A stretch of DNA of 64,000 nt, from the NCBI GenBank assembly GCA_945901065.1, contig CAMDKI010000011.1, positions 16,149 to 80,148 of the forward strand, read 5' to 3'. This DNA is from Chitinophaga pinensis. Its GTDB lineage: Bacteria; Bacteroidota; Bacteroidia; Chitinophagales; CAIOSU01. Both the position numbers and the translations under genes were made by a program. Positions 2,111 to 59,741 of this stretch are shown in pieces (position 1 is the first letter of the stretch; the number at the start of each line of letters is the position of its first letter). The notes below the pieces were generated by a model that worked only from the letters and a program-made list of their open reading frames with translations, made no database searches and was not told where the DNA came from.

Positions 2111-2166
2111 GTATCAAGTAGTGAGTATCAAGTACTTTCGATTTACGAGGTACGATTTACGATTGA
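2111..2166. repeat. Heptamer array, forward arm (GTATCAA then CGATTTA dialects), 8 units
   Basis: Reads GTATCAA GTAGTGA GTATCAA GTACTTT CGATTTA CGAGGTA CGATTTA CGATTGA with no gaps. Confidence 0.9.
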
Positions 2167-2238
2167 ATGGTCGAAAAATTAAGGAATTTGACCGGAGATA
2201 AAACTAAAAAAACAATTCACACAACATTTTATACGCAG

Positions 2239-2301
2239 TACTAACTACTTGATACTTGATACTTGATACTCACTACTTGATACTCACTACTTAATACTAA
2301 A
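2239..2301. repeat. Heptamer array, reverse arm (TACTTGA dialect), 9 units
   Basis: Reads TACTAAC TACTTGA TACTTGA TACTTGA TACTCAC TACTTGA TACTCAC TACTTAA TACTAAA. Positions 2260-2283 are the perfect reverse complement of 2111-2134. Confidence 0.9.
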
Positions 2302-2353
2302 ATTGAACTTTTGCTCGTAAACTTGTTTTAATTTGTAACAAAGCTTTCATGTT

Positions 2354-3628
2354 ATGGAAATGCAACTAAATCACCCACTTAGCCTTTCTGATACTTTTGC
2401 GAAGCGTTTTAAGCATATACGCGCTCAAACGGAAGCTATTTGTGCGCCTTTGAAAGTGGAGGATTATGTGGCACAGCCCATCGTGGATGTTAGCCCCCCG
2501 AAATGGCATTTAGCCCATACTACGTGGTTTTTCGAGAATTTCATATTGTTGCCGCACTTGCCTGGCTACAAGGTTTTTGATACCGACTTTAGCTATATGT
2601 TCAATAGTTATTACGAGAGTGTGGGTGAGCGTGTATTGCGCGACCACCGTGGCCACATGACCCGCCCTAGTGTTGTTGAGGTGTATGAGTATAGGCGCTA
2701 TGTAGATGTAGCCATGCTGCAGTTTTTTGATAAAAATGATGAATTGGATGCGGCATTAAAATACACATTGGAGATTGGCTTACAACACGAGCAGCAGCAT
2801 CAAGAGCTGTTGGTTACGGATATTAAATACATACTCGGGCACCACCCATTGCATCCCGTGTACAAGGTAATTGAGTTGCCAGAAACCGGAACTGCACTAC
2901 CGCCGCAATGGCACGAAATAGCCGAAGGAATTTATTATATTGGATACGATGGTAGTGGATTTTGTTTTGATAATGAACAAGGTGTGCATCAAGTTTACCT
3001 GCAACAATGTCGCATCATGAACCGCCCCATAACCAATGCAGAGTACTTGCGGTTTATGGAAGATGGAGGTTATGCCAATCACCAATGGTGGTTTGCTGAT
3101 GCCTGGGGATGGCTAAGCGAAATGGGCATAAAAGCCCCACACTATTGGGAGCAACATAACGGCCAATGGTACCAATACCAATTGGATGGCTTAAAACCCA
3201 TTGACCCAAATGCACCCGTAACCCACGTAAGTATGTATGAGGCTGCGGCCTATGCCATGTGGGCCGGCAAGCGCCTACCTACCGAACAGGAATGGGAAGT
3301 AGCTGCCAAAACATTGCAGCCTGGAGGGCCTAGTGAGGGCAACTTCCTAGAGCAAAGTAAATTTCAATCGTTACCTACCCAAGAAAATAGCCAATGGTAT
3401 GGCGATGTTTGGGAATGGACCAACAGCGCCTACCTGCCTTACCCCTATTACCAGCGGCCCGATGGTGCGCTGGGCGAGTACAATGGTAAGTTTATGATTA
3501 ACCAAATGGTATTGCGCGGCGGCTCTTGTTCTACGCCACAAAGCCACATTAGGCCTACTTACCGTAACTTCTTTCAGCCGGATAAAAGGTGGCAGTTTAC
3601 GGGTTTTCGTTTGGCGGAGCACGTTTAG
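2354..3628 (+). CDS. egtB: EgtB-like sulfoxide synthase (DinB-like N-domain plus FGE-sulfatase-like C-domain)
   Basis: 424 aa. The motifs WHLAHTTWFFENF and LQHEQQHQELL fit a DinB-type metal site. The C-terminal motifs RLPTEQEWEVAA, GDVWEWTNS and VLRGGSCSTP fit an FGE-sulfatase fold. No egtD-like methyltransferase is adjacent. Confidence 0.75.
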   Translation: MEMQLNHPLSLSDTFAKRFKHIRAQTEAICAPLKVEDYVAQPIVDVSPPKWHLAHTTWFFENFILLPHLPGYKVFDTDFSYMFNSYYESVGERVLRDHRGHMTRPSVVEVYEYRRYVDVAMLQFFDKNDELDAALKYTLEIGLQHEQQHQELLVTDIKYILGHHPLHPVYKVIELPETGTALPPQWHEIAEGIYYIGYDGSGFCFDNEQGVHQVYLQQCRIMNRPITNAEYLRFMEDGGYANHQWWFADAWGWLSEMGIKAPHYWEQHNGQWYQYQLDGLKPIDPNAPVTHVSMYEAAAYAMWAGKRLPTEQEWEVAAKTLQPGGPSEGNFLEQSKFQSLPTQENSQWYGDVWEWTNSAYLPYPYYQRPDGALGEYNGKFMINQMVLRGGSCSTPQSHIRPTYRNFFQPDKRWQFTGFRLAEHV

Positions 3629-3631
3629 CAA

Positions 3632-3690
3632 GTACCGAGTAGCAAGTAGCAAGTATTTTTGATTTACGAAGTACGATTTACGATTGAATG
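3632..3690. repeat. Heptamer array, forward arm, paralog of 2111-2169
   Basis: Reads GTACCGA GTAGCAA GTAGCAA GTATTTT TGATTTA CGAAGTA CGATTTA CGATTGA ATG. Positions 3653-3690 match 2132-2169 at 35 of 38 positions. It begins 3 nt after the egtB stop codon. Confidence 0.9.
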
Positions 3691-3808
3691 TTGGTTAATT
3701 TAAGAGTTGTAAATTGCAACAAAACAAGAGTAATAATTTAAAGGCCATAATACCTTCCAATCTCGTAATCAGGACTTTGCAAAACCTATTTAAAATTTTG
3801 ATAAGTAG

Positions 3809-3850
3809 GTCTTGATACTTGATACTCACTACTTGATACTTATTCTGTAT
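3809..3850. repeat. Heptamer array, reverse arm (TACTTGA dialect)
   Basis: Reads GTCTTGA TACTTGA TACTCAC TACTTGA TACTTAT TCTGTAT. Confidence 0.85.
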
Positions 3851-3893: not shown

Positions 3894-4487
3894 ATGTCTT
3901 ATACCACCTATCAGATGCAGCAACCATCCTATACTGCCCGCTCGGCCGATGTAAGCGAAGAACAAGCCTGGATAATGGCCGCCCAGCAAGATTCACGCAA
4001 GTTTGAGCCCCTCTACAATCGCTATTACGAGGCTATTTACCGCTTTGTTTACCAGCGCGTAAACGACAAGCATGCCACTAGCGATATTACCTCGGAGGTG
4101 TTTATTAAAGCCTTATCGAGCCTCAACTCATTTTCACATCAAGGCATTCCGTTTAGTTCTTGGTTGTTCCGCATTACGCGCAACATGCTCATCGACCGTT
4201 TCCGCAAGAGCAAAAACCACCGGGTAATAAACGTTGAAACCAGCGCATTGGCAGGTATGGCCGAAGAAGCTGAAGTGACAAGTGTAGATGGGGAAAAGAT
4301 AAACCGCATGTTGCAATGCCTTGAAAACCTTGCCGATGAAGAGATGCAACTGATAGAGATGCGCTACTTTGAGAAGCGCAGCTTTAAAGAAATTGGCGAA
4401 ATACTGGACATAACCGAAAACAACGCCAAAGTAAAAACCTACCGCATCTTAGATAAGATGAAAAACCTTATGCTACAAGCTAAATAA
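3894..4487 (+). CDS. RNA polymerase sigma-70 family (ECF-type) sigma factor
   Basis: 197 aa. It has region 2-like (YEAIYRFVYQRVNDKHATSDITSEVFIKAL) and region 4-like (EMQLIEMRYFEKRSFKEIGEILDITENNAKVKTYRILDKM) sequence. Confidence 0.85.
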   Translation: MSYTTYQMQQPSYTARSADVSEEQAWIMAAQQDSRKFEPLYNRYYEAIYRFVYQRVNDKHATSDITSEVFIKALSSLNSFSHQGIPFSSWLFRITRNMLIDRFRKSKNHRVINVETSALAGMAEEAEVTSVDGEKINRMLQCLENLADEEMQLIEMRYFEKRSFKEIGEILDITENNAKVKTYRILDKMKNLMLQAK

Positions 4488-4494
4488 CCCAGCC

Positions 4495-6183
4495 ATGAAA
4501 AAGAACAAATTCAATATAAACCCTTCCCCTGTAACGCCAGAGGATATACAAGCAGGTAAAAATTTTGATGCCTTTCATAAGCAATACCAAACTACCCAGC
4601 GCGGTTCGGTGCTACGCCGCATGGCTCTGCCTAGCTTAGCTGCAGTTGCCGCATTGGTGCTGGTGTTTATGCTATTTAGGTTGCCCAACGGCGGTACCCA
4701 AATGGTGGCACAGTTTATAGCGCCGCCAATTCAAGGGCTGGAGCGCACCTACGAGCAAATTAGCTTTATGGTTGAAGAAGGACTCATGATAGACCTACCA
4801 AGCGGCACTAAAATAAACATACCGCCCAATGCCTTTGTAGATGCCAATGGCAACCCATACAAAGGCCCTGCAATCCTTAATTACCGCGAATATACCGACC
4901 CACTATCTATTGCCCTGAGCGGCATACCAATGACCTATGATTCGGCTGGAGTATGGTATACTTTCGAGTCGGCGGGGATGTTTGACATGTTGGTTGAAGG
5001 CAAGCCATTTGGCGAGAACGCCGAAGCCACCCAAGCACTTTCATTGGTCAATGGCGCCATAGTATCGGTAGGCATGCCTACTACCAACCCCGACGATGGC
5101 TTTAACGTGTATGAGCTGGATACTGCAAATAAAAACTGGGCCTTGCGTGGCAAAGATTCAATTGCACCTGTGATAGCAGATGCAGCCCCAGAACCTACAC
5201 CTACCAAAATTGCCGCTACCAACCCCGTTAAAGTAGAGGTAACCGATGCCAAACTGCAGCAACTGTACAACACCATCCAAATGATTGGCGATAGCATTGC
5301 TTATTACCAAAACTTTGAGCTGATAAAACCGCTTAGAGCCTCTACCGAAGCGCACCACTTTACCACTGAAATGAAATTGAATGACTACCCGGAGTTGCCC
5401 TTAAATGAAACTGTTTCGTGGGAAGTGGCACCCTACACTGCTGGTTTTGAGCCGACCTTTAAAAGCACCCGATGGGACAACAAGAAAGTAACTCGCATAA
5501 AAGGCACCGAGTACAACTTGCTACTGGAAAAAGGCAGTACCAAACACATTTTTGTATGCAAGCCAGTGTACCAAGGCAAACACTACGCTACTGCCCTAAA
5601 ATACTACGATGCCAAGATGATCACCAATCAAGAGCGTATGGCTTTCCTTGTGCAGCGCCGCAAAGAGTTGCAAAACGAATACGATGCTTACAAAAATGAA
5701 TTGATTGCCAAACAGGGCAACAACACTAAACAGGTACTAGACAATACCGAAGCGCAGTTCGAAAACCAATACAACCTAGCCACCACTCAAAACACTGTGT
5801 ACCGCTTTGTGGCTGTAGACCGCATGGGAATTTGGAACATTGACCAAATATACAAACAGCCAGATTACGTAAGGGCCGAAAGCGAATTTGTGGATATTAA
5901 GGGAAAAGTATTAACCATGCACCGCGTTATCCTTTTCGAGAAAGGATTGCAGGCCAGTTTTGAGTTCTTTAAAATGCCAGATAGCGAGACGGTTAGGTTT
6001 CTATATAACCCCGAAAAGGCGTATACCGGTATTGGTATTACTACTGATGGTAAGGTATTTCTACTTGGGCCAACTGATTTAAAGAAGGTTAAATTGGATG
6101 GTATTAACACCATTAAAACCAAGGAGTTATTTATCCCGAAATCGGAAAAAGAGCTTAGGGATAAATTGAAAAGCATTGCCTAA
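4495..6183 (+). CDS. Single-pass membrane protein, possible anti-sigma partner of the upstream sigma factor
   Basis: 562 aa, starting 7 nt after the sigma gene stop. A ~45-aa cytoplasmic head is followed by one TM helix (LPSLAAVAALVLVFMLF) and a ~500-aa external domain that I do not recognise. No zf-HC2 (HxxxCxxC) motif is present. Confidence 0.6.
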   Translation: MKKNKFNINPSPVTPEDIQAGKNFDAFHKQYQTTQRGSVLRRMALPSLAAVAALVLVFMLFRLPNGGTQMVAQFIAPPIQGLERTYEQISFMVEEGLMIDLPSGTKINIPPNAFVDANGNPYKGPAILNYREYTDPLSIALSGIPMTYDSAGVWYTFESAGMFDMLVEGKPFGENAEATQALSLVNGAIVSVGMPTTNPDDGFNVYELDTANKNWALRGKDSIAPVIADAAPEPTPTKIAATNPVKVEVTDAKLQQLYNTIQMIGDSIAYYQNFELIKPLRASTEAHHFTTEMKLNDYPELPLNETVSWEVAPYTAGFEPTFKSTRWDNKKVTRIKGTEYNLLLEKGSTKHIFVCKPVYQGKHYATALKYYDAKMITNQERMAFLVQRRKELQNEYDAYKNELIAKQGNNTKQVLDNTEAQFENQYNLATTQNTVYRFVAVDRMGIWNIDQIYKQPDYVRAESEFVDIKGKVLTMHRVILFEKGLQASFEFFKMPDSETVRFLYNPEKAYTGIGITTDGKVFLLGPTDLKKVKLDGINTIKTKELFIPKSEKELRDKLKSIA

Positions 6184-8587: not shown

Positions 8588-8588
8588 G

Positions 8589-8630
8589 AGTTGTTATTTG
8601 TTAATTAGTTGATTGGTAATTGGTTAAAAG
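8589..8630. repeat. Heptamer array (TTGGTTA/ATTGGTA dialect)
   Basis: Reads AGTTGTT ATTTGTT AATTAGT TGATTGG TAATTGG TTAAAAG, immediately upstream of the lepB start codon (8587). Confidence 0.8.
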
Positions 8631-8728
8631 TAACAACTCCTACGAACTTGCCAGCAACTATGTTCTTTAATTAGATTTATTTAACGCTTTTATCTGCAAT
8701 CTTTACTGATAAATATCCTATGCTCCAG

Positions 8729-8773
8729 TCAACCAATAACCAGTTAACTAATAACCAATCAACCAATAACCAG
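8729..8773. repeat. Heptamer array (AACCAAT dialect), inverted partner of 8589-8630
   Basis: Reads TCAACCA ATAACCA GTTAACT AATAACC AATCAAC CAATAAC CAG. The 15-mer TCAACCAATAACCAG occurs twice (8729 and 8759). It abuts the dapB stop (8776). Confidence 0.8.
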
Positions 8774-8775
8774 CT

Positions 8776-11897: not shown

Positions 11898-12105
11898 CCT
11901 AAAACCCGTGTTTTTACTTGTTTTCAACGGTGCATACCGTTGTTTTGAAGTGGATGTAAAGATACGATAATTAAAGGAATAGCGCGCCCGAAAACCGCAA
12001 TTTTATGAACACGATATACACAAAATGGACACTATTTTTGGGGATAATGGGTGGGTAAAAATGGATTGGGTTGGTGGTGAAGGGGGTAGGTTTTTACGGA
12101 TGCCT

Positions 12106-12233
12106 GTTCGGATTTGCAATCCGAACTATGGAGCTACGGATTTGTAATCCGTTATACTACGGGTATGTTATGTTCTTGGTGTTTCGGCGGATTGAAAATC
12201 CACGGCTCGGTTGCAACGGATTATAAATCCGTC
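12106..12233. repeat. Cluster of four small hairpins sharing the stem CGGATT/AATCCG
   Basis: GTTCGGATT-TGC-AATCCGAAC (12106-12126, 9-bp stem), ACGGATT-TGT-AATCCGT (12136-12152), GGATT-GAA-AATCC (12189-12201) and ACGGATT-ATA-AATCCGT (12217-12233). Confidence 0.85.
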
Positions 12234-12238
12234 GCGGC

Positions 12239-12247
12239 GGGGGGGGG
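12239..12247. repeat. Homopolymeric G9 tract
   Basis: Nine consecutive G directly after the fourth CGGATT hairpin. It is intergenic. Confidence 0.9.
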
Positions 12248-12478
12248 TAATGGAAATTAGCGGTAGTATTTGGGATGCACTGCACTAGTGGTCGGTGCAT
12301 CCTTAAATCTTCACAAACACAATAAATTGAAAATCAATAAGTTACAAAATAAAAAGCGAACAACTCACACATAATCAATCACTTACATTTTAATAGGCAA
12401 ACACGCTCAAACTCGCGCCAATAAACGATTCGTGGACGACAAAACTCGATTAATTCAGGTTCAGCACTTCACCGGTGC

Positions 12479-12537
12479 AACCACCCCCAACCCCTCCTTT
12501 TTCTAGGCTGCACAGGCTTGGCGAAGGAGGGGAGCTG
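12479..12537. repeat. CCTCC/GGAGG hairpin repeat, copy 2 (forward)
   Basis: AACCACCCCCAACCCCTCCTTT - 23-nt loop - AAGGAGGGGAGCTG. Confidence 0.8.
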
Positions 12538-12640
12538 TCAAGGGCACAGCCTTAACTAACTTCATCAGGACCTTAAAATCCTATACTTTAACATCGAAAA
12601 TAGTAATTTGCAATAGTGCCCCTATATGTCATAAAGTTGC

Positions 12641-12719
12641 CAGCTCCCCTCCCTGCCTACGGCAGGCAGGCTTCGAATGGCCTTTTTGCGCGCTGCGAAA
12701 GGAGGGGTTGGGGGTGGTT
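12641..12719. repeat. CCTCC/GGAGG hairpin repeat, copy 3 (reverse orientation)
   Basis: CAGCTCCCCTCC ... AAAGGAGGGGTTGGGGGTGGTT. Its 22-nt end is the exact reverse complement of 12479-12500. It has an inner CCTGCC-TAC-GGCAGG hairpin. Confidence 0.8.
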
Positions 12720-12793
12720 AAACGCAACACAACCCCCGTCAAACCTCACTTCTTGGACGACAAAACTATGCATTAAGAGAAACACCTTTTCCA

Positions 12794-12801
12794 TAATTTT
12801 G
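12794..12801 (+). promoter_or_regulatory. Candidate Bacteroidota -7 promoter box (TAATTTTG) for the TA operon
   Basis: An exact match to TAnnTTTG lies 32 nt upstream of the ATG at 12833. No clear -33 TTTG was seen. It overlaps an inverted copy of the ACGACAAAA motif. Confidence 0.3.
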
Positions 12802-12832
12802 TCGTTAAATGATAGAATCATTAACTTAGAGT

Positions 12833-14033: not shown

Positions 14034-15701
14034 ATGACCAAAACTATATTTAACCGCAACAATACCTCAATCGTACATCGTACATCGTACATCGTACATT
14101 ACGTTGTAGTAGCGTTAATCATTGTATTGGCGACTAGTTGCGGCGGTGACGGCAAAACAACGACCAACAACACTTTCAAGTTTAACATGACCAGCGGCGT
14201 AACCTCGCTAGATCCAGCCTTTGCCCGCGACCAAAGTAATATTTGGATGGTGAATGCCATGTTCAACGGGCTATTGCAGTTTGACGAACTATTGAACCTA
14301 CAGCCGTGCCTAGCCAAAAGCTGGACTATTAGTGAAGATGCACTGACCTATACCTTCGCCCTACGAAACGATGTGTACTTTCATAATGATGAAGTATTTG
14401 GCGGCAATAAACGAAAACTAACGGCAGCCGATGTTGCATATACCTTCAACCGACTGATTGACCCTAACACTGCCTCGCCGGGTGCGTGGATATTCAATGG
14501 CCGGATAGCAGAAAACAACCCTTTTGAAGCGCTTAACGATAGTACTTTTGTAATGCGCTTAAAGGAGCCCTTTGGCCCGATGCTGAGCCTGCTGACGTTA
14601 CAATACACCTATATAGTGCCCAAAGAGGCCACCGAGAAATACGGCAAGGAGTTTAGGTTGCATCCGGTGGGCACCGGGCCTTTTATGCTGAAAATGTGGG
14701 CAGAGGGCAACCAGTTGGTAATGCAAAAGAACCCTGACTACTTTGAGCGCGAAGGCGACCAGCAACTACCTTATCTGGATAATGTGCAGGTTTATTTCAT
14801 CCAGAACAAATACTCGGAATACTTAGAGTTTAATCAAGGCGGCTTGGACTTTATAAGCAGTGTGGATGCCACCACCGTAAACGAACTATTGGCTACCGAT
14901 GGCGGCCTAAAGCCTGAGCATAACGGCAAAATGACCTTGTACAAAATACCTTACCTCAATAGCGAATACTTGGGTTTTCTGTTGGATGAAACCAGCCCCG
15001 ATGCCAATAAGGCACTGCTAAACAAGCAGGTGCGCCAAGCCATTAACTACGGTTTCAACCGCAAGGAGATGCTGCAATACCTGCGCAACAGCGTTGGGCG
15101 CCCAGCCAATGCAGGCTTTGTGCCGTATGGCTTGCCTTCGTTTGACGAAAAAGCCACCCCCGGCTATAGCTATGATGTGGCTAAGGCTAAGCAACTGCTA
15201 GCCGAAGCGGGCTACCCAGGTGGCAAAGGCTTGCCTGCCATTAAGCTGCTTACCAACCCCACTTATAAAGACATAGCCGAGTACCTGCAAAAGCAATTGG
15301 CCGAAATCGGTATCAATATTGACGTAGAGATAGTGCAGCCATCGCTGCTGCGCGACCAAATGCTGAAAAGCAAAGCCACCTTTTTCCGCGGCTCATGGAT
15401 AGCTGACTACCCAGATGCGGAGAGCTTTTTATCGGTGTTTTATGGCAATGTGCCTGCCCCGCCCAACTATACCCGTTTCCGTAATGCGGAGTTTGACAGT
15501 CTGTACACCCTTTCGCTAAAAGAAACCGACCAAACCAAACGCTTTGCACTGTACCAAGCCCTTGACCGTATTGTAATTGAGGAAGCACCCATTGTGCCGC
15601 TATACTATGACGAGGTGCTGCGCTTTGTGCGCACTGGCGTAACAGGCCTAGAGCCCAATGCCATGAACTTGTTGGATTTGAAAAGGGTAAAGGTAAAGTA
15701 A
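14034..15701 (+). CDS. ABC transporter substrate-binding lipoprotein (family 5, peptide/nickel type)
   Basis: 555 aa. Lipobox LATSC follows a long n-region, and the rest resembles SBP_bac_5 throughout (e.g. GTGPFML, NPDYF). No permease or ATPase is adjacent. The n-region is encoded by a perfect 4x heptamer repeat (14071-14098). Confidence 0.85.
   Translation: MTKTIFNRNNTSIVHRTSYIVHYVVVALIIVLATSCGGDGKTTTNNTFKFNMTSGVTSLDPAFARDQSNIWMVNAMFNGLLQFDELLNLQPCLAKSWTISEDALTYTFALRNDVYFHNDEVFGGNKRKLTAADVAYTFNRLIDPNTASPGAWIFNGRIAENNPFEALNDSTFVMRLKEPFGPMLSLLTLQYTYIVPKEATEKYGKEFRLHPVGTGPFMLKMWAEGNQLVMQKNPDYFEREGDQQLPYLDNVQVYFIQNKYSEYLEFNQGGLDFISSVDATTVNELLATDGGLKPEHNGKMTLYKIPYLNSEYLGFLLDETSPDANKALLNKQVRQAINYGFNRKEMLQYLRNSVGRPANAGFVPYGLPSFDEKATPGYSYDVAKAKQLLAEAGYPGGKGLPAIKLLTNPTYKDIAEYLQKQLAEIGINIDVEIVQPSLLRDQMLKSKATFFRGSWIADYPDAESFLSVFYGNVPAPPNYTRFRNAEFDSLYTLSLKETDQTKRFALYQALDRIVIEEAPIVPLYYDEVLRFVRTGVTGLEPNAMNLLDLKRVKVK
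14071..14098 (+). repeat. Perfect (TCGTACA)x4 heptamer repeat inside the 5' end of the SBP lipoprotein CDS
   Basis: Four identical contiguous units followed by a degenerate TTACGTT. They encode part of the signal-peptide n-region (SIVHRTSYIVHY). Confidence 0.95.
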
Positions 15702-15704
15702 ATT

Positions 15705-15746
15705 AGTTGCGGGTTGCGGGTTGCGAGTTACGGGTTACGAGTTAAT
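15705..15746. repeat. Heptamer array (GGTTGCG dialect), 6 units
   Basis: Reads AGTTGCG GGTTGCG GGTTGCG AGTTACG GGTTACG AGTTAAT and starts 3 nt after the SBP stop codon. Confidence 0.9.
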
Positions 15747-25558: not shown

Positions 25559-25574
25559 GTTTTGTTAGCATTAA

Positions 25575-25609
25575 GTATCAAGTACCAAGTATCAAGTATC
25601 AAGATAACC
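25575..25609. repeat. Heptamer array, forward arm (GTATCAA dialect), 5 units
   Basis: Reads GTATCAA GTACCAA GTATCAA GTATCAA GATAACC, 17 nt after the ABC ATPase stop. Confidence 0.9.
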
Positions 25610-25634
25610 TATTTCCATAGCAAATGTGAAAACA

Positions 25635-25675
25635 AAAGCCTCGAAACATATCATGTTCCGAGGCTTTAATTTATT
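25635..25675. terminator. Bidirectional rho-independent terminator between ABC ATPase gene and queA
   Basis: A 15-bp stem with one mismatch (AAAGCCTCGAAACAT / ATGTTCCGAGGCTTT) and a 3-nt loop, with an A-run before and a T-rich run after. It sits in the spacer of the GTATCAA module. Confidence 0.8.
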
Positions 25676-25690
25676 ATTTACATATCAAGG

Positions 25691-25774
25691 TACTTAATAC
25701 TCAATACTTGATACTTAATACTCAATACTTGATACTTGATACTTGATAATTGATACTTGATACTTGATACTTTA
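25691..25774. repeat. Heptamer array, reverse arm (TACTTGA dialect), 12 units
   Basis: Reads TACTTAA TACTCAA TACTTGA TACTTAA TACTCAA TACTTGA TACTTGA TACTTGA TAATTGA TACTTGA TACTTGA TACTTTA. It abuts the queA stop codon (25775-25777). Confidence 0.95.
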
Positions 25775-26821
25775 TTACAAAATCAACATTGCATCGCCAT
25801 AGGTAAAGAAGCGGTAATTTTCCTTAATGGCTTCCTCATAAGCTTTCATTATTAGATCGTAACCACCAAATGAAGCGTTCATGATCAACAAGCTTGACTT
25901 AGGTAAGTGAAAGTTTGAAATCATGCAATTGGCAATACTAAACTCGTGTGGTGGGTGAATAAACAAGTTCGTCCAACCTTCCATGGGTTTAAGCAAGTGC
26001 TGTGCCGATACTGCCGACTCCATAGATCGCATACTAGTGGTGCCTACTGCACAAATTTTATGCTTACCTTCTTTACCTTTATTTACAATATCGCAGTTCT
26101 TTTGATTGATAAAAAAGTACTCGGCATCCATTTTATGCTTGCTCAAATCTTCCACATCAATGGTACGGAAAGTACCCAGACCAACGTGCAACGTAAGTTC
26201 AGCAAAGTTTACACCCTTAATCTCTAGGCGCTTCATCAACTCCTTACTAAAGTGCATTCCAGCAGTTGGGGCAGCCACAGCGCCTTCGTTGCTTGCAAAT
26301 ACGGTTTGGTAGCGGTCTTTATCTAAATCTTCTGGTTTGCGTTTAATGGCTTTTGGCAGTGGCGTTTCGCCAAGACTGTATAGCAATGCCTTAAACTCTT
26401 CATAACTACCATCGTGCAGAAAACGAATCGTACGGCCCCGTGAGGTGGTATTGTCAACAACTTCCGCTACCAAATCATCTTCGCCAAAGTAAAGTTTGTT
26501 GCCTACCCGTATTTTACGGGCAGGGTCAACCAATACGTCCCAAAGTTTATTCTCAGCATTCAATTCACGAAGCAAGAACACTTCAATTTTGGCTCCAGTT
26601 TTTTCCTTTTTGCCATACATACGCGCCGGAAACACTTTCGTGTTGTTCAACACCATTACATCGCCATCATCAAAGTAACCCAAAACGTCGCGAAACATCT
26701 TGTGTTCAATAGTGCCTGTAGCACGATTGACTACCATCAAGCGGCTTTGGTCACGTTCATCATTAGGGTAAGAAGCAATTAGGTTGGGAGGTAATTCAAA
26801 GTTAAACTGGGATAACTTCAT
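25775..26821 (-). CDS. queA: S-adenosylmethionine:tRNA ribosyltransferase-isomerase
   Basis: 348 aa. [19 protein letters not shown]...RDQSRLMV and [12 protein letters not shown] are QueA hallmarks. Confidence 0.9.
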
Positions 26822-45497: not shown

Positions 45498-45537
45498 TAG
45501 TTGGTTGATTAGTTATTAGTTAATTGGTTATTTGCTA
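45496..45537. repeat. Heptamer array (TTGGTTA dialect), solo arm
   Basis: Reads AGTAGTT GGTTGAT TAGTTAT TAGTTAA TTGGTTA TTTGCTA and begins within the ahcY stop codon. Confidence 0.8.
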
Positions 45538-51332: not shown

Positions 51333-51335
51333 GTC

Positions 51336-51426
51336 AATTTGAAAATGAGGTAATTTGATAATTTGGAAATGAAAAGACATTAAAAAAGTCATTTTCAAAT
51401 TCGCACATTTTCAAATTTTCAAATTA
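51336..51426. repeat. Octamer-array module (AATTTGAA dialect): two inverted arms with 12-nt spacer
   Basis: The forward arm reads AATTTGAA AATGAGGT AATTTGAT AATTTGGA AATGAAAA (51336-51375). The reverse arm 51388-51426 is the complement of AATTTGAA AATTTGAA AATGTGCG AATTTGAA AATGAC. It lies between convergent genes and overlaps the E2 stop codon. Confidence 0.9.
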
Positions 51427-52680
51427 AACAAGCATCCTCACTGGGTCTTCCAACAACGACTTGAAGGTTTGAAGGAACTGAGCACCTGTGGCACCATCCA
51501 CTACACGGTGATCGCAAGATAGAGTAACTTTCATAATAAGCTCATGGCGCAGCTCGCCATCATCATCCATTACTAAGCGCTTACTGATACCGCCAACGGC
51601 CAATATACATGCATCGGGTGGATTAATTATGGCTGTAAACTCCTCAATACCAAACATACCCAAATTGGAGATGGTGAAGGTATTGCCCTGCATTTCGGCA
51701 GGCTGTAGTTTTTTGTCTTTTGCTTTGCCAGCTAGTTCCCTTACTTCGGCAGCAATGTGAGATAGACCTTTGTTATCGGCAAAACGGATAACTGGCACCA
51801 ACAATCCTTCCTCAACGGCCACGGCTACACCAATATGGATGTGGTGGTTGTAACGTATTTTATCGCCCAACCAAGAGCTGTTTACTTTCGGGTGGCGACG
51901 CAAAGCAGCAGCAGCGGCTTTCAATACCAAATCATTGAACGATATTTTCACTGGTGAGAAAGCGTTCAATCCTTCGCGGGCAGCGGTGGCCTTATCCATG
52001 TTTATCTCCATGGTAAGGTAAAAGTGGGGGGCACTGAATTTGCTCTCGCCCAAGCGCTTCGCTATGGTTTTGCGCATTTGCGATACCGTTACCTCTTCAT
52101 AGCTCTCCACTCCTACCACAGCAGGCAGTTGCACCGATTGCTGCGCAGGTTCGGCTTTTTTGGCGGCTGGTTGGTATTGTTCCACATCACGTTTCACAAT
52201 ACGTCCATCATCGCCACTACCTTTTAGATCGCTTACACTTATACCTTTATCCTCAGCTATTTTACGGGCCAATGGCGATATTTTCAAGCGACTATCATCG
52301 GCCACTGGCTCTGGTGCTATTGGCTCAGGTTTTGCTTCTTCTTGAGGCTTATCTTCTTGCTGTGCCGCTGGTTTAGCCTCCTCCTTCTCCGTATTAGTAT
52401 CGCTCCCCTTTTCCGAGCCTAACAATGGTTTATAGTCTTCGCCTTTTTTACCCACGATGGCCAAAATACCATTTACCTGCACCGCCGCGCCAGCTTCAAC
52501 GCCAATGTACAATAGCACACCTTCTTGGTAGCTTTCTAGCTCCATGGTTGCTTTATCGGTTTCCACTTCGGCCAATAGGTCGCCCGACTTTACATTGTCG
52601 CCAACCTTTTTGTGCCAAGCCACTATCACCCCTTCTTCCATCGTATCGCTCATGCGCGGCATTCGAATCACTTCAGCCAT
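51424..52680 (-). CDS. 2-oxoacid (pyruvate) dehydrogenase complex E2 dihydrolipoamide acyltransferase
   Basis: ATG at 52680 (MAEVIRMPRMSDTMEEG). It has a lipoyl site VETDKATMELES, an Ala/Pro/Glu linker, an E3-binding segment (ISPLARKIA) and the catalytic motif DHRVVDG. The ORF-track extension to 52788 translates an octamer array. Confidence 0.9.
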   Translation of the reverse strand: MAEVIRMPRMSDTMEEGVIVAWHKKVGDNVKSGDLLAEVETDKATMELESYQEGVLLYIGVEAGAAVQVNGILAIVGKKGEDYKPLLGSEKGSDTNTEKEEAKPAAQQEDKPQEEAKPEPIAPEPVADDSRLKISPLARKIAEDKGISVSDLKGSGDDGRIVKRDVEQYQPAAKKAEPAQQSVQLPAVVGVESYEEVTVSQMRKTIAKRLGESKFSAPHFYLTMEINMDKATAAREGLNAFSPVKISFNDLVLKAAAAALRRHPKVNSSWLGDKIRYNHHIHIGVAVAVEEGLLVPVIRFADNKGLSHIAAEVRELAGKAKDKKLQPAEMQGNTFTISNLGMFGIEEFTAIINPPDACILAVGGISKRLVMDDDGELRHELIMKVTLSCDHRVVDGATGAQFLQTFKSLLEDPVRMLV

Positions 52681-52687
52681 AATTATT

Positions 52688-52834
52688 AATTTGAAAATTT
52701 GAAAATTAGGTAATTTGGAAATGGTGTGTTTAGTAATGCAATTAAAAAGGGGAGGTAAACTCAACTTGAAAAGTCTGGACTTAGCCAAAAATCATTTCCA
52801 AATTTTCAAATTTCCTCATTTTCAAATTGAATTA
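52688..52834. repeat. Octamer-array module (AATTTGAA dialect): two inverted arms with ~63-nt spacer
   Basis: The forward arm reads AATTTGAA AATTTGAA AATTAGGT AATTTGGA AATGGTGT (52688-52727). The reverse arm 52791-52834 is the complement of AATTTGAA AATGAGGA AATTTGAA AATTTGGA AATGAT and overlaps the M16 peptidase stop codon. Confidence 0.9.
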
Positions 52835-58552: not shown

Positions 58553-58560
58553 TTTTAACG

Positions 58561-58609
58561 AATTAACCAATAACTAATTAACCAATCAACTATTAACTAA
58601 TCAACCAAA
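58561..58609. repeat. Heptamer array (AACCAAT dialect), 7 units, filling the phnX-like/phnW spacer
   Basis: Reads AATTAAC CAATAAC TAATTAA CCAATCA ACTATTA ACTAATC AACCAAA. Confidence 0.85.
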
Positions 58610-58613
58610 CCGC

Positions 58614-59741
58614 ATGGAGACAACCCTAACCAAAGATAAATTACTATTTACGCCTGGCCCGCTAACCACCAGCTTGACCGTGAAGCAAGCCATGCTTCGC
58701 GACTTGGGCTCTCGCGATATTGAGTTTATCAATACCGTGAAACAAGTGCGCAATGCCTTGTTAGTGATGGGCGAGGTAAGCCAAGCCCAAGGCTATGAAG
58801 CCGTGTTGATGCAGGGCTCTGGCACTTTTGGTGTGGAGTCGGTTATATCTTCGGCACTGCCTAAGGTGGGTGGTCATTTGCTGGTAATTATCAATGGCGC
58901 ATACGGCGACCGTATTGCCAAAATGGCGGACGTGCACGGTATTACCAAAACCGTGTTGAAATATGCCGAAGATGAGTATCCTTCTTTGGAAGATATTGAG
59001 AACACTTTGCAACAAAACCCAAGCATTACCCATGCCGTAGTGGTGCATTGCGAAACTACCAGTGGCATTTTCAACCCTATAAAAGCTATTGGCGAAGTGG
59101 TGAAAAAGCATGGCAAAACCTATATAGTGGATGCCATGAGTAGCTTTGGTGCAGTGCCTACGAATATAGCCGCTAATCAAATCGACTTTCTGGTATCTTC
59201 TTCAAACAAATGTATTGAAGGTGTGCCGGGCTTTAGCTTCTCTATTATACAAAAGGATGCGCTGAACGCCTGCAAAGGTAATGCCCGCAGCCTAAGCTTG
59301 GACCTATATGCCCAATGGGAGGGTTTGGAGCAAAATGGCCAGTTCCGTTTTACGCCGCCTACACACACCATTTTGGCCTTTTGGCAAGCGGTGCAAGAGC
59401 ATACTGCCGAAGGTGGTGTAATTGGCCGCAGTGCGCGATATCAGAAAAACTATAACTTACTAGTGGCTGGCATGCGCGATTTGGGCTTTAAAGAATACCT
59501 GTCGCCTGAAAAGCAAGGCTACATCATTAGCTCATTCTTGTACCCTGAGGATTCGAACTTCGATTTCAAGAAATTCTATGAGCTATTGAACAGTATGGAT
59601 TTCGTTATCTACCCCGGTAAGTTGAGCCAAGTAGATTGTTTCCGTATTGGCAACATTGGCCACATTACCGAGGTTGATATCCGTGGTTTGTTGGGAGCAA
59701 TTAAGGATGTGTTGTTGGAAATGGGTGTAACTTTAAAATAA
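58614..59741 (+). CDS. phnW: 2-aminoethylphosphonate--pyruvate transaminase
   Basis: 375 aa, class V aminotransferase layout (LFTPGPLTTS...SSSNKCIEGVPG with the PLP Lys). It is adjacent to a phosphonatase-like hydrolase. Confidence 0.8.
   Translation: METTLTKDKLLFTPGPLTTSLTVKQAMLRDLGSRDIEFINTVKQVRNALLVMGEVSQAQGYEAVLMQGSGTFGVESVISSALPKVGGHLLVIINGAYGDRIAKMADVHGITKTVLKYAEDEYPSLEDIENTLQQNPSITHAVVVHCETTSGIFNPIKAIGEVVKKHGKTYIVDAMSSFGAVPTNIAANQIDFLVSSSNKCIEGVPGFSFSIIQKDALNACKGNARSLSLDLYAQWEGLEQNGQFRFTPPTHTILAFWQAVQEHTAEGGVIGRSARYQKNYNLLVAGMRDLGFKEYLSPEKQGYIISSFLYPEDSNFDFKKFYELLNSMDFVIYPGKLSQVDCFRIGNIGHITEVDIRGLLGAIKDVLLEMGVTLK

Follow-up and report, generated by a model that had tools for sequence, protein, structure and literature searches.

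The DNA considered here is a 64,000-nucleotide (nt) stretch of a Chitinophaga pinensis contig (CAMDKI010000011.1, positions 16,149 to 80,148), referred to below, at its full length, as the window; the same DNA is found in a 722-kb metagenome contig of the European Nucleotide Archive (ENA), ERZ27280281:k141_568765. Near the left end of the window egtB, the gene for the ergothioneine biosynthesis protein EgtB, lies between ftsK and the gene for an ECF sigma factor, and the intergenic spacer on each side of it is occupied by a block of degenerate 7-nt words, laid out as two mutually inverted arrays (the arms) around a central spacer (Table 1). Given the order and strands of the three genes, the left block falls in a divergent intergenic spacer and the right block in a tandem one, and 53-54 nt separate the blocks from start codons. 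A preliminary description had singled out this paired arrangement around egtB, and the numbers it gave for it were reproduced.

Direct parsing of the left block confirmed eight gap-free forward heptamers at 2111-2166 (GTATCAA GTAGTGA GTATCAA GTACTTT CGATTTA CGAGGTA CGATTTA CGATTGA), a 72-nt central spacer and nine reverse units. The perfect inverted repeat between the arms, given earlier as 24 bp, is present and is 25 bp long (2110-2134 against 2260-2284, with a 125-nt interval between), and the CGATTTA/CGAGGTA sub-array at 2139-2166 has no inverted partner. The right block was correctly placed near the end of egtB, but rather than starting 3 nt after the stop codon its array begins at that codon itself (TAG, 3626-3628), where Tandem Repeats Finder reports 4.3 copies of TAGCAAG at 3626-3655. 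Positions 3653-3690 match 2132-2169 at 35 of 38 positions, as previously counted; the direct repeat family linking the two blocks (D2) extends over 108 nt at 73% identity; and the 3' arms contain an identical direct repeat of 30 nt (2255-2284 and 3811-3840). The statement that the two central spacers are unrelated and only the arms conserved was slightly too strong. It agrees with an unanchored local alignment, in which the spacers scored no higher than shuffles, but when the register was set by the common CGATTGAATG they matched at 35 of 67 positions against an expected 31% (p = 2e-4), the identity being confined to the first part of the right spacer with none farther on. The two blocks share, besides the CGATTTA sub-array, some 50 nt of their spacers. 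The suggested folding of each block into a long hairpin is borne out by RNA fold energies of -49.7 kcal/mol for the left block (z = -5.5) and -51.7 kcal/mol for the right (z = -2.8), the latter reflecting imperfect pairing of its 5' arm with its 3' arm. Both blocks are found again, slightly altered, in assemblies made independently (GCA_027486795.1, GCA_027488445.1 and Logan contigs) and are therefore not assembly artefacts.

Table 1. Repeat blocks, their parts and the neighbouring genes, in window coordinates.
Feature	Position	Strand	Remarks
ftsK	start codon near 2005	minus	
Left block (ftsK-egtB spacer)	2110-2301	none	inverted pair of degenerate heptamer arrays
Left block, 5' arm, GTATCAA/GTAGTGA heptamers	2110-2137	none	direct reading; 25 bp also perfectly complementary to 3816-3840
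Left block, second dialect, CGATTTA/CGAGGTA sub-array	2139-2166	none	Tandem Repeats Finder, period 7
Left block, central spacer	2167-2238	none	72 nt, mostly site-specific
Left block, 3' arm, nine TACTTGA/TACTCAC units	2239-2301	none	Tandem Repeats Finder and direct parse
egtB, ergothioneine biosynthesis protein EgtB	2354-3628	plus	TIGR03440, 550.7 bits (cutoff 360); Pfam FGE-sulfatase, DinB_2
Right block	3626-3846	none	inverted pair of degenerate heptamer arrays; end approximate
Right block, 5' arm, TAGCAAG/TACCGAG units	3626-3656	none	starts at the egtB stop codon
Right block, CGATTTA sub-array	3661-3690	none	paralogue of 2139-2169
Right block, central spacer	3691-3796	none	
Right block, 3' arm	3797-3846	none	contains 3811-3840
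ECF sigma factor gene	3894-4487	plus	Pfam and NCBIfam
562-aa open reading frame (ORF)	4495-6183		8 nt past the sigma gene; kept together with it in L215-L217
TTGGTTA/AACCAAT block	8588-8775	none	occupies the entire dapB-lepB spacer
Third block, GTATCAA/TACTTGA family	25567-25778	none	between convergent ABC-ATPase and queA genes
Terminator-like GC-rich hairpin in loop of third block	25635-25667		15 pairs, 6 of them G-C, then a T-run
8-nt AATTTGAA/TTCAAATT block	51333-51427	none	Tandem Repeats Finder
Second 8-nt AATTTGAA block	52683-52830	none	Tandem Repeats Finder

The locus constitutes a clean natural series, with different fillings of one intergenic spacer in graded relatives, changes by whole units between strains that are nearly identical, and a block on a rearrangement junction. 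The genome closest to the window is the 'Sphingobacteriales bacterium' metagenome-assembled genome (MAG) GCA_027486795.1, at ~95% nucleotide identity, and EgtB identity to the window is 96% in loci L122/L123, 85% in L218, 79% in L125, 77% in L126 and 76% in L219. Conservation of both blocks in the closest relatives, which the preliminary description had named among the conditions for its claim, was found in L122/L123. There the 5' arm of the left block is longer than in the window by 7 nt (one unit) and the 3' arm shorter by 21 nt (three units), and the central spacer (2167-2238) differs by only 3 single-nucleotide polymorphisms; that spacer has no counterpart in L125, L126 or L218. Alignment to the window breaks off at 2106 in L125 and 2100 in L126 and picks up again at 2300 and 2299, respectively. 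Between these ends L125 has 74 nt including a mini-array (GTACGAG GTACAAT GTACGAT), and L126 has a 286-nt block of another word (GAGATGA/CAGATGA forward, ATCTCAC-type reverse). L218 has a GTACGA array but no GTATCAA arms, and L219 has no array of any kind. The window's CGATTTA sub-array is homologous to the GTACGAG/GTACGAT arrays that L125 and L218 have at this site and is therefore older than the GTATCAA arms; read along the whole series (window, L125, L126, L218, L219), the inner CGATTTA/GTACGA array is old and the arms are recent. In all relatives examined egtB adjoins ftsK, including L218, L125, L126 and L219, which are devoid of GTATCAA arms, so that egtB predates the blocks. The right block coincides exactly with a synteny breakpoint downstream of egtB: other genes follow egtB in L125/L126, PspC/DUF2851 precedes the sigma gene block in L215-L217, and the conserved region 5' of the sigma gene, which is common to L215, starts at ~3846, directly after the block's 3' arm.

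A second site, the dapB-lepB spacer, has three different fillings across relatives. Allele A (AACCAAT) is found in the window, in L215/L216 (85% DapB identity) and in L217 (82%); allele B (AATTTTGA) in L122 (95% nucleotide identity; L122 positions 12232-12418, with the same boundaries as in the window) and L214 (89%); and allele C in L213 (93%). The 35 nt of the allele A 3' arm directly upstream of the lepB start codon are identical in the window, L215, L216 and L217. At these sites the arrays gain and lose whole units, and they turn over completely between relatives while the site itself stays fixed. The blocks also systematically break short-read assemblies: the egtB-bearing Logan short-read contigs L002 (window 2255-3838) and L124 (2274-3840) have both ends inside repeat arms, and many contigs from relatives are just 1-2 kb long.

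Beyond the locus, the enrichment of 7-nt periodicity in intergenic DNA that had been expected was present. Seven lag-7 runs occur in the window against 0-2 at each other lag within 4-12, and five of the seven lie in the ~11% of the window outside ORFs (crudely called). Per 100 kb there are 10.9 period-7 arrays in the window, 17.6 in close relatives and 3.1 in a control of 836 kb of metagenome loci, for which an EgtB homologue was the sole selection criterion; the metagenome scan for EgtB from which these loci derive found no close relative (58% identity at most), and they were reused as an unselected control. Period 7 is the commonest period there and in the close relatives too. Of the 14 arrays in the window and close relatives, 7 have a reverse-complement partner no more than 350 nt away, as do 13 of 26 in the control loci and 59 of 257 in loci selected by word, where sequence-reversal controls gave 15 and 8. 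Three tandem copies of TACTTGA occur at more than 119 genome loci; among the 80 matches listed, 49 are to named Bacteroidota of many orders, the matches including Algoriphagus, Pedobacter cryophilus, Maribellus mangrovi and Taibaiella soli, and the loci concerned are also rich in other heptamer words (146 of 254 arrays). Cross-phylum matches to the same string (candidate phyla radiation bacteria, Xenorhabdus, an archaeon) were considered as evidence of horizontal spread and dismissed as mostly short or coding, and heterogeneous. A scan of viral contigs for it returned only 6 matches, so no phage link emerges.

We collected 62 blocks over all loci. The intergenic spacers of 46 of them are tandem in 33 cases, divergent in 6 and convergent in 7, where background spacers number 884, 227 and 233, respectively (chi-square p = 0.69); block spacer types thus match background and follow no transcription logic. 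In the median, a block takes up 76% of its spacer and starts 6 nt past the upstream stop codon. The arrays are found in dispensable spacer DNA irrespective of how the neighbouring genes are oriented, and it is because the blocks are neutral to that orientation and are turned over that we describe them as accumulating there. Once periodic sequence was masked, the interiors of 40 blocks had nothing in common, and the blocks are accordingly not a mobile family. In tandem spacers, read on the sense strand, arm mismatches of G:U type number 20 and those of A:C type 37, with no excess of G:U wobble, and 128 of 222 arm mismatches are of transversion type; there is no RNA-helix signature. When unit order was permuted, mirrored variants were more frequent in the observed than in the permuted order in 30 of 39 blocks, a comparison that is biased, since only the observed register was optimised, that has low power per block, and to which no weight is given here. 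Heptamer arrays also lie directly 3' of the egtB stop codon in other lineages with EgtB only ~50% identical, namely L171 (3105-3241), L191 (11140-11264) and L203 (6800-6915), with the words GGATTCA, TTCAAGA and AAATTTC/CGTAATT; in L191 and L203 they form an inverted pair.

The survey, made across taxa, also contributes an unexpected polarity rule. In 51 of 61 blocks (p = 1e-7), and on either strand, it is the 5' arm that is richer in G, as it is in 16 of the 18 blocks of a set not selected by word. By type of intergenic spacer the ratio is 27:5 in tandem, 6:0 in divergent and 7:0 in convergent cases, and unpaired arrays have no sense-strand bias (48:38). That the G-rich arm comes first whatever the direction of transcription is a simple and testable rule, and any model of these blocks must explain it.

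The reading we favour, and to which we would give an even chance, is that the blocks are slippage-driven heptamer simple-sequence repeats with arms kept alike by copying at the DNA level and with at most an incidental hairpin effect. The arrays would grow and shrink by replication slippage, as their unit-step polymorphism suggests, and the arms of one block, and of neighbouring blocks, would be homogenised by template switching or gene conversion rather than by selection on an RNA helix. Copying of DNA is indicated by the unit GTAGTGA, which departs from its neighbours at three positions and is nevertheless mirrored exactly, and by identical tracts of 25-30 nt in three arms. Any effect on expression would be incidental: co-transcribed arms would form a hairpin of -50 to -70 kcal/mol, which could act in the manner of repetitive extragenic palindromic (REP) sequences or bacterial interspersed mosaic elements (BIMEs), by forming a barrier where RNAs have their 3' ends or by insulating one transcription unit from the next. 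Such an effect is possible where arms are co-transcribed, although nothing in the sequence data requires it. egtB is a resident gene between two spacers that happen to be colonised by one dialect, and the blocks around it are ordinary members of a fast-changing intergenic simple-sequence-repeat class known from other bacteria.

Several observations weigh against this account. A dialect is common to neighbouring blocks twice in 64 kb, and blocks of the GTATCAA word occur in many Bacteroidota. G-rich-first polarity is not predicted by simple slippage. The identity of the 35-nt lepB-proximal arm at 82-85% DapB identity suggests selection on at least some arms, and the order of the dapB-lepB alleles (A in the window, B at 95%, A again at 82-85%) is incongruent with flank divergence and therefore requires recombination or replacement beyond drift in place. 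The polarity rule, the conserved arm and the incongruent alleles keep alive a reading in terms of selection or of an active process. With regard to the latter, we think it improbable, though worth stating, that the fixed chirality of the blocks reflects an active and directional DNA process rather than passive slippage. Repeats might be added to 3' ends at a DNA break which is then rejoined, which would leave arrays head to head with a polarity like that of fused telomeres, or a strand-specific enzyme might work on hairpins. If so, the blocks would have been left behind, as scars or products, by a repair or mobility pathway not yet described, and that pathway would account as well for the exchange of whole blocks at fixed sites and for a right block placed exactly on a synteny breakpoint.

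Selection on function in cis is the most credible of the competing explanations, albeit still an unlikely one. The blocks would then be hairpins or word arrays with a symmetric role, as bidirectional terminators or insulators, RNA-stability elements or arrays of protein-binding sites. Their strong fold energies, the short median distance from the upstream stop codon, the block or array directly after the egtB stop in the heptamer-rich loci L171, L191 and L203, and the retention of the 35-nt arm 5' of lepB across 82-100% DapB identity all agree with such a role, as does a polarity that is independent of the word and places a purine-rich before a pyrimidine-rich arm, as in bidirectional terminators. 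But divergent spacers are not depleted of blocks and the left block itself sits between divergent promoters; on the sense strand there is no enrichment of wobble mismatches; pairing between the right block's arms is poor (z = -2.8); the GTATCAA arms are missing from L218, an 85% relative; differences in word from site to site argue against a single binding protein; and experiments on the comparable Xanthomonas repeats revealed no function (PMC4692102). A non-autonomous element akin to a MITE (miniature inverted-repeat transposable element) or to a REPIN (REP doublet forming a hairpin), in which the arrays are terminal inverted repeats for a transposase acting in trans and hops to nearby spacers are preferred, we regard as considerably less probable. 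Inverted termini with fixed polarity, sharp boundaries, the replacement of a whole block at one site when 95%-identical strains are compared, neighbouring blocks with a common dialect and a partly common interior, and the same architecture and word in an unrelated Bacteroidota MAG (L014) would all be expected of it, whereas interiors unique to each site, arms of unequal length that change in 7-nt steps, and the small number of viral-contig matches would not. Nor is there a visible target-site duplication at the left block (flanks ...TTCTTTCTT| and |AAAATTGAAC) or at the right (...CACGTT| and |TGTATCTTT). The CGATTTA array of the left block moreover predates the arms, and since it is also found in relatives without them, the GTATCAA arms were added around resident DNA.

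The preliminary description had proposed that egtB could be looped out or in by homologous recombination between the two direct copies. The gene does lie between two identical copies of a 30-nt direct repeat, and the short assemblies L002 and L124 start and stop inside the arms; assemblers, though, end contigs in any repeated k-mer, egtB stands beside ftsK in every relative, the arm-less ones included, and no junction without egtB was seen among the relatives examined. We therefore hold this model to be very improbable. Bracketing is, besides, no peculiarity of egtB, because the unrelated housekeeping gene for a 2-oxoacid dehydrogenase E2 acyltransferase (51424-52680, minus strand) is likewise flanked by two 8-mer blocks, which are, like the egtB pair, neighbours with a common dialect. 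Hardly more plausible is an invertible, phase-variable segment, with the arms as recombination sites of an invertase and the spacer flipping between them. The geometry, a perfect 25-bp inverted repeat around 125 nt, upstream of egtB and the sigma gene, does resemble that of Bacteroidota invertons. Against this, both orientations of the spacer were sought and a single one was seen in all independent assemblies of each allele (few samples, at assembly level), the genes flanking the third block are convergent, and the arms are word arrays of variable length with no fixed core site.

The window holds at least six inverted-array blocks, the two around egtB included, of which only three are of the GTATCAA word. 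The third of these has arms of 37-40 nt and 88 nt and folds at -70 kcal/mol (z = -9.9), but its arms would rarely be on one transcript because its loop has a terminator-like hairpin of its own. We considered whether the 22 kb between the right and third blocks might be a block-bounded insert and rejected the idea: the third block is followed by queA, which is no homologue of the gene found after egtB in L125/L126, and the window contains neither MutS2 nor its neighbours. The 562-aa ORF behind the sigma gene has zero matches in Pfam, NCBIfam and the Protein Data Bank (PDB); it is presumably an uncharacterised anti-sigma factor, given a hydrophobic stretch near the N-terminus that we take for a single membrane-spanning helix. 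A Cas12f-like partner, an idea taken from PMC13472631, was ruled out by the same null searches and the same hydrophobic stretch.

Repeats of other kinds were encountered elsewhere in the window. A perfect ATCGTAC array of 4.3 copies (14064-14103) is part of the coding sequence, at the 5' end, of an SBP_bac_5 lipoprotein gene (14034-15701), where it encodes the N-terminal part of the signal peptide, ahead of an LATSCGG lipobox. Since the array spans 28 nt, which is no multiple of three, a change of one unit would shift the reading frame, and phase variation of this gene by such changes is possible. The L215 orthologue has a CACAAAG/CGTTGTG inverted repeat in the place of the array. Directly 3' of the stop codon of the same gene is a GTTGCGG/GTTACGG array (15704-15744), and the orthologous spacer of L215 (2930-3080) contains a GAATTTT-type inverted block instead. 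Arrays of TTAACCAAT/TTAACTAA at 58555-58608 (also at 45504-45532) end a few nt 5' of an aminotransferase start codon at 58614. Adjoining parA are ~0.9 kb without genes (11898-12832), which include a small hairpin, CGGATTnnnAATCCG, in four copies (12109-12235) and a perfect 22-bp inverted repeat with arms 197 nt apart (12479-12500 / 12698-12719). This stretch, which has no Rfam or tRNA match and where GC skew is uninformative, could lie close to the origin or represent a non-coding RNA. Over the whole window, a scan with Rfam at gathering thresholds and a tRNA scan gave zero matches, and the GC-skew profile yields no usable replication polarity.

In comparison with known systems, the preliminary description was right to set the blocks apart from CRISPRs, insertion-sequence ends, classical REPs and classical terminators. 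The units are 7 nt long and contiguous, and the arms are mutually inverted, none of which fits a CRISPR, whose direct repeats of 25-40 nt alternate regularly with unique spacers of about the same size. A terminator-like site, with a short G+C-rich stem and a T-run behind it, is present in the loop of the third block only, and neither the left nor the right block has one. REP elements can serve as RNA 3'-end barriers, and the blocks resemble REPs, BIMEs and REPINs in being extragenic, hairpin-forming, located between cistrons or at gene ends, and variable in occupancy between strains; they differ in having arms made of word arrays of variable length in place of a conserved palindromic unit of 20-40 nt that recurs in many near-identical copies, and no REP-associated tyrosine transposase (RAYT) or other transposase is found among the annotated neighbours in the window and its flanks. 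With MITEs they share terminal inverted repeats, small size, an intergenic location and sharp boundaries, but not a common interior or a target-site duplication, and their arms change by unit slippage.

The blocks find their closest counterparts among intergenic heptamer repeats. Cyanobacterial short tandemly repeated repetitive (STRR) sequences were reportedly described by Mazel in 1990, and their words include CCCCAGT, TTGGTCA and CAACAGT. As in STRRs and other long simple-sequence repeats, the units here are tandem 7-mers in three or more head-to-tail copies, period 7 is over-represented and concentrated in non-coding DNA, copy number changes by whole units between close strains, and several word families occur per genome, the heptamer being the commonest period in our control set as well. 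The arms are not STRRs in the strict sense, as they use GTATCAA, GTAGTGA and CGATTTA and none of the STRR words, and the definition of STRRs does not include inverted pairing. Heptamers were the dominant long simple-sequence repeat of prokaryotes in the survey of Mrazek (2007), as related in PMC4679880, and inverted pairs are few in Nostoc (PMC4692102). The STRR likeness drawn in the preliminary description therefore stands, but heptamer arrays are not new to Bacteroidota, since intergenic assemblages of them have been reported from Elizabethkingia, Gramella and Aequorivita (PMC4679880). No paper turned up when the literature was searched for the array string itself.

TAACTGA repeats have been described from Beggiatoaceae, Cyanobacteria and five Bacteroidetes (MacGregor 2015, PMC4679880). 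They and other spacer heptamers of Bacteroidetes are absent from close relatives of equal gene order, and the Maribeggiatoa genome has one inverted repeat only among 170 repeat sets (PMC4679880). The window's TTAACTAA/AACCAAT arrays (8588-8775, 58555-58608) are similarly placed directly upstream of start codons, those at 58555-58608 recalling the start-codon-proximal repeats of Beggiatoaceae and Flexibacter (PMC4679880), whereas the blocks around egtB are GTATCAA inverted pairs at a distance of 53-54 nt from start codons. A further close parallel is provided by Xanthomonas, whose genomes each contain 70-75 convergent pairs of degenerate GGGAATC heptamers on opposite strands, able to form a stem-loop or cruciform; from one close species to another they differ in length and sequence but not in site, and a function for them was not found (Rehm et al. 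2015, PMC4692102). The blocks described here likewise consist of one word on opposite strands, close together and convergent. They differ in host, which is a member of the Bacteroidota, in their long and site-specific central spacers (72-170 nt), and in not being under-represented in divergent spacers (6 of 46 against 227 of 1344, p = 0.69). The Xanthomonas type, moreover, has G-tract words that can form G-quadruplexes, with four units preferred, whereas the words here are AT-rich and, with no G-runs in any arm, cannot form a G-quadruplex.

No long simple-sequence repeat is commoner in prokaryotes than the heptamer, for which neither a function nor a mechanism of origin has been established, and blocks such as these may mislead annotators into calling a cassette, a MITE or a terminator. 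With long simple-sequence repeats, STRRs, the GGGAATC pairs of Xanthomonas and the TAACTGA repeats as its other members, the known class of intergenic heptamers is the one to which the blocks belong; the polarity rule and the swapping of alleles are the parts worth following.

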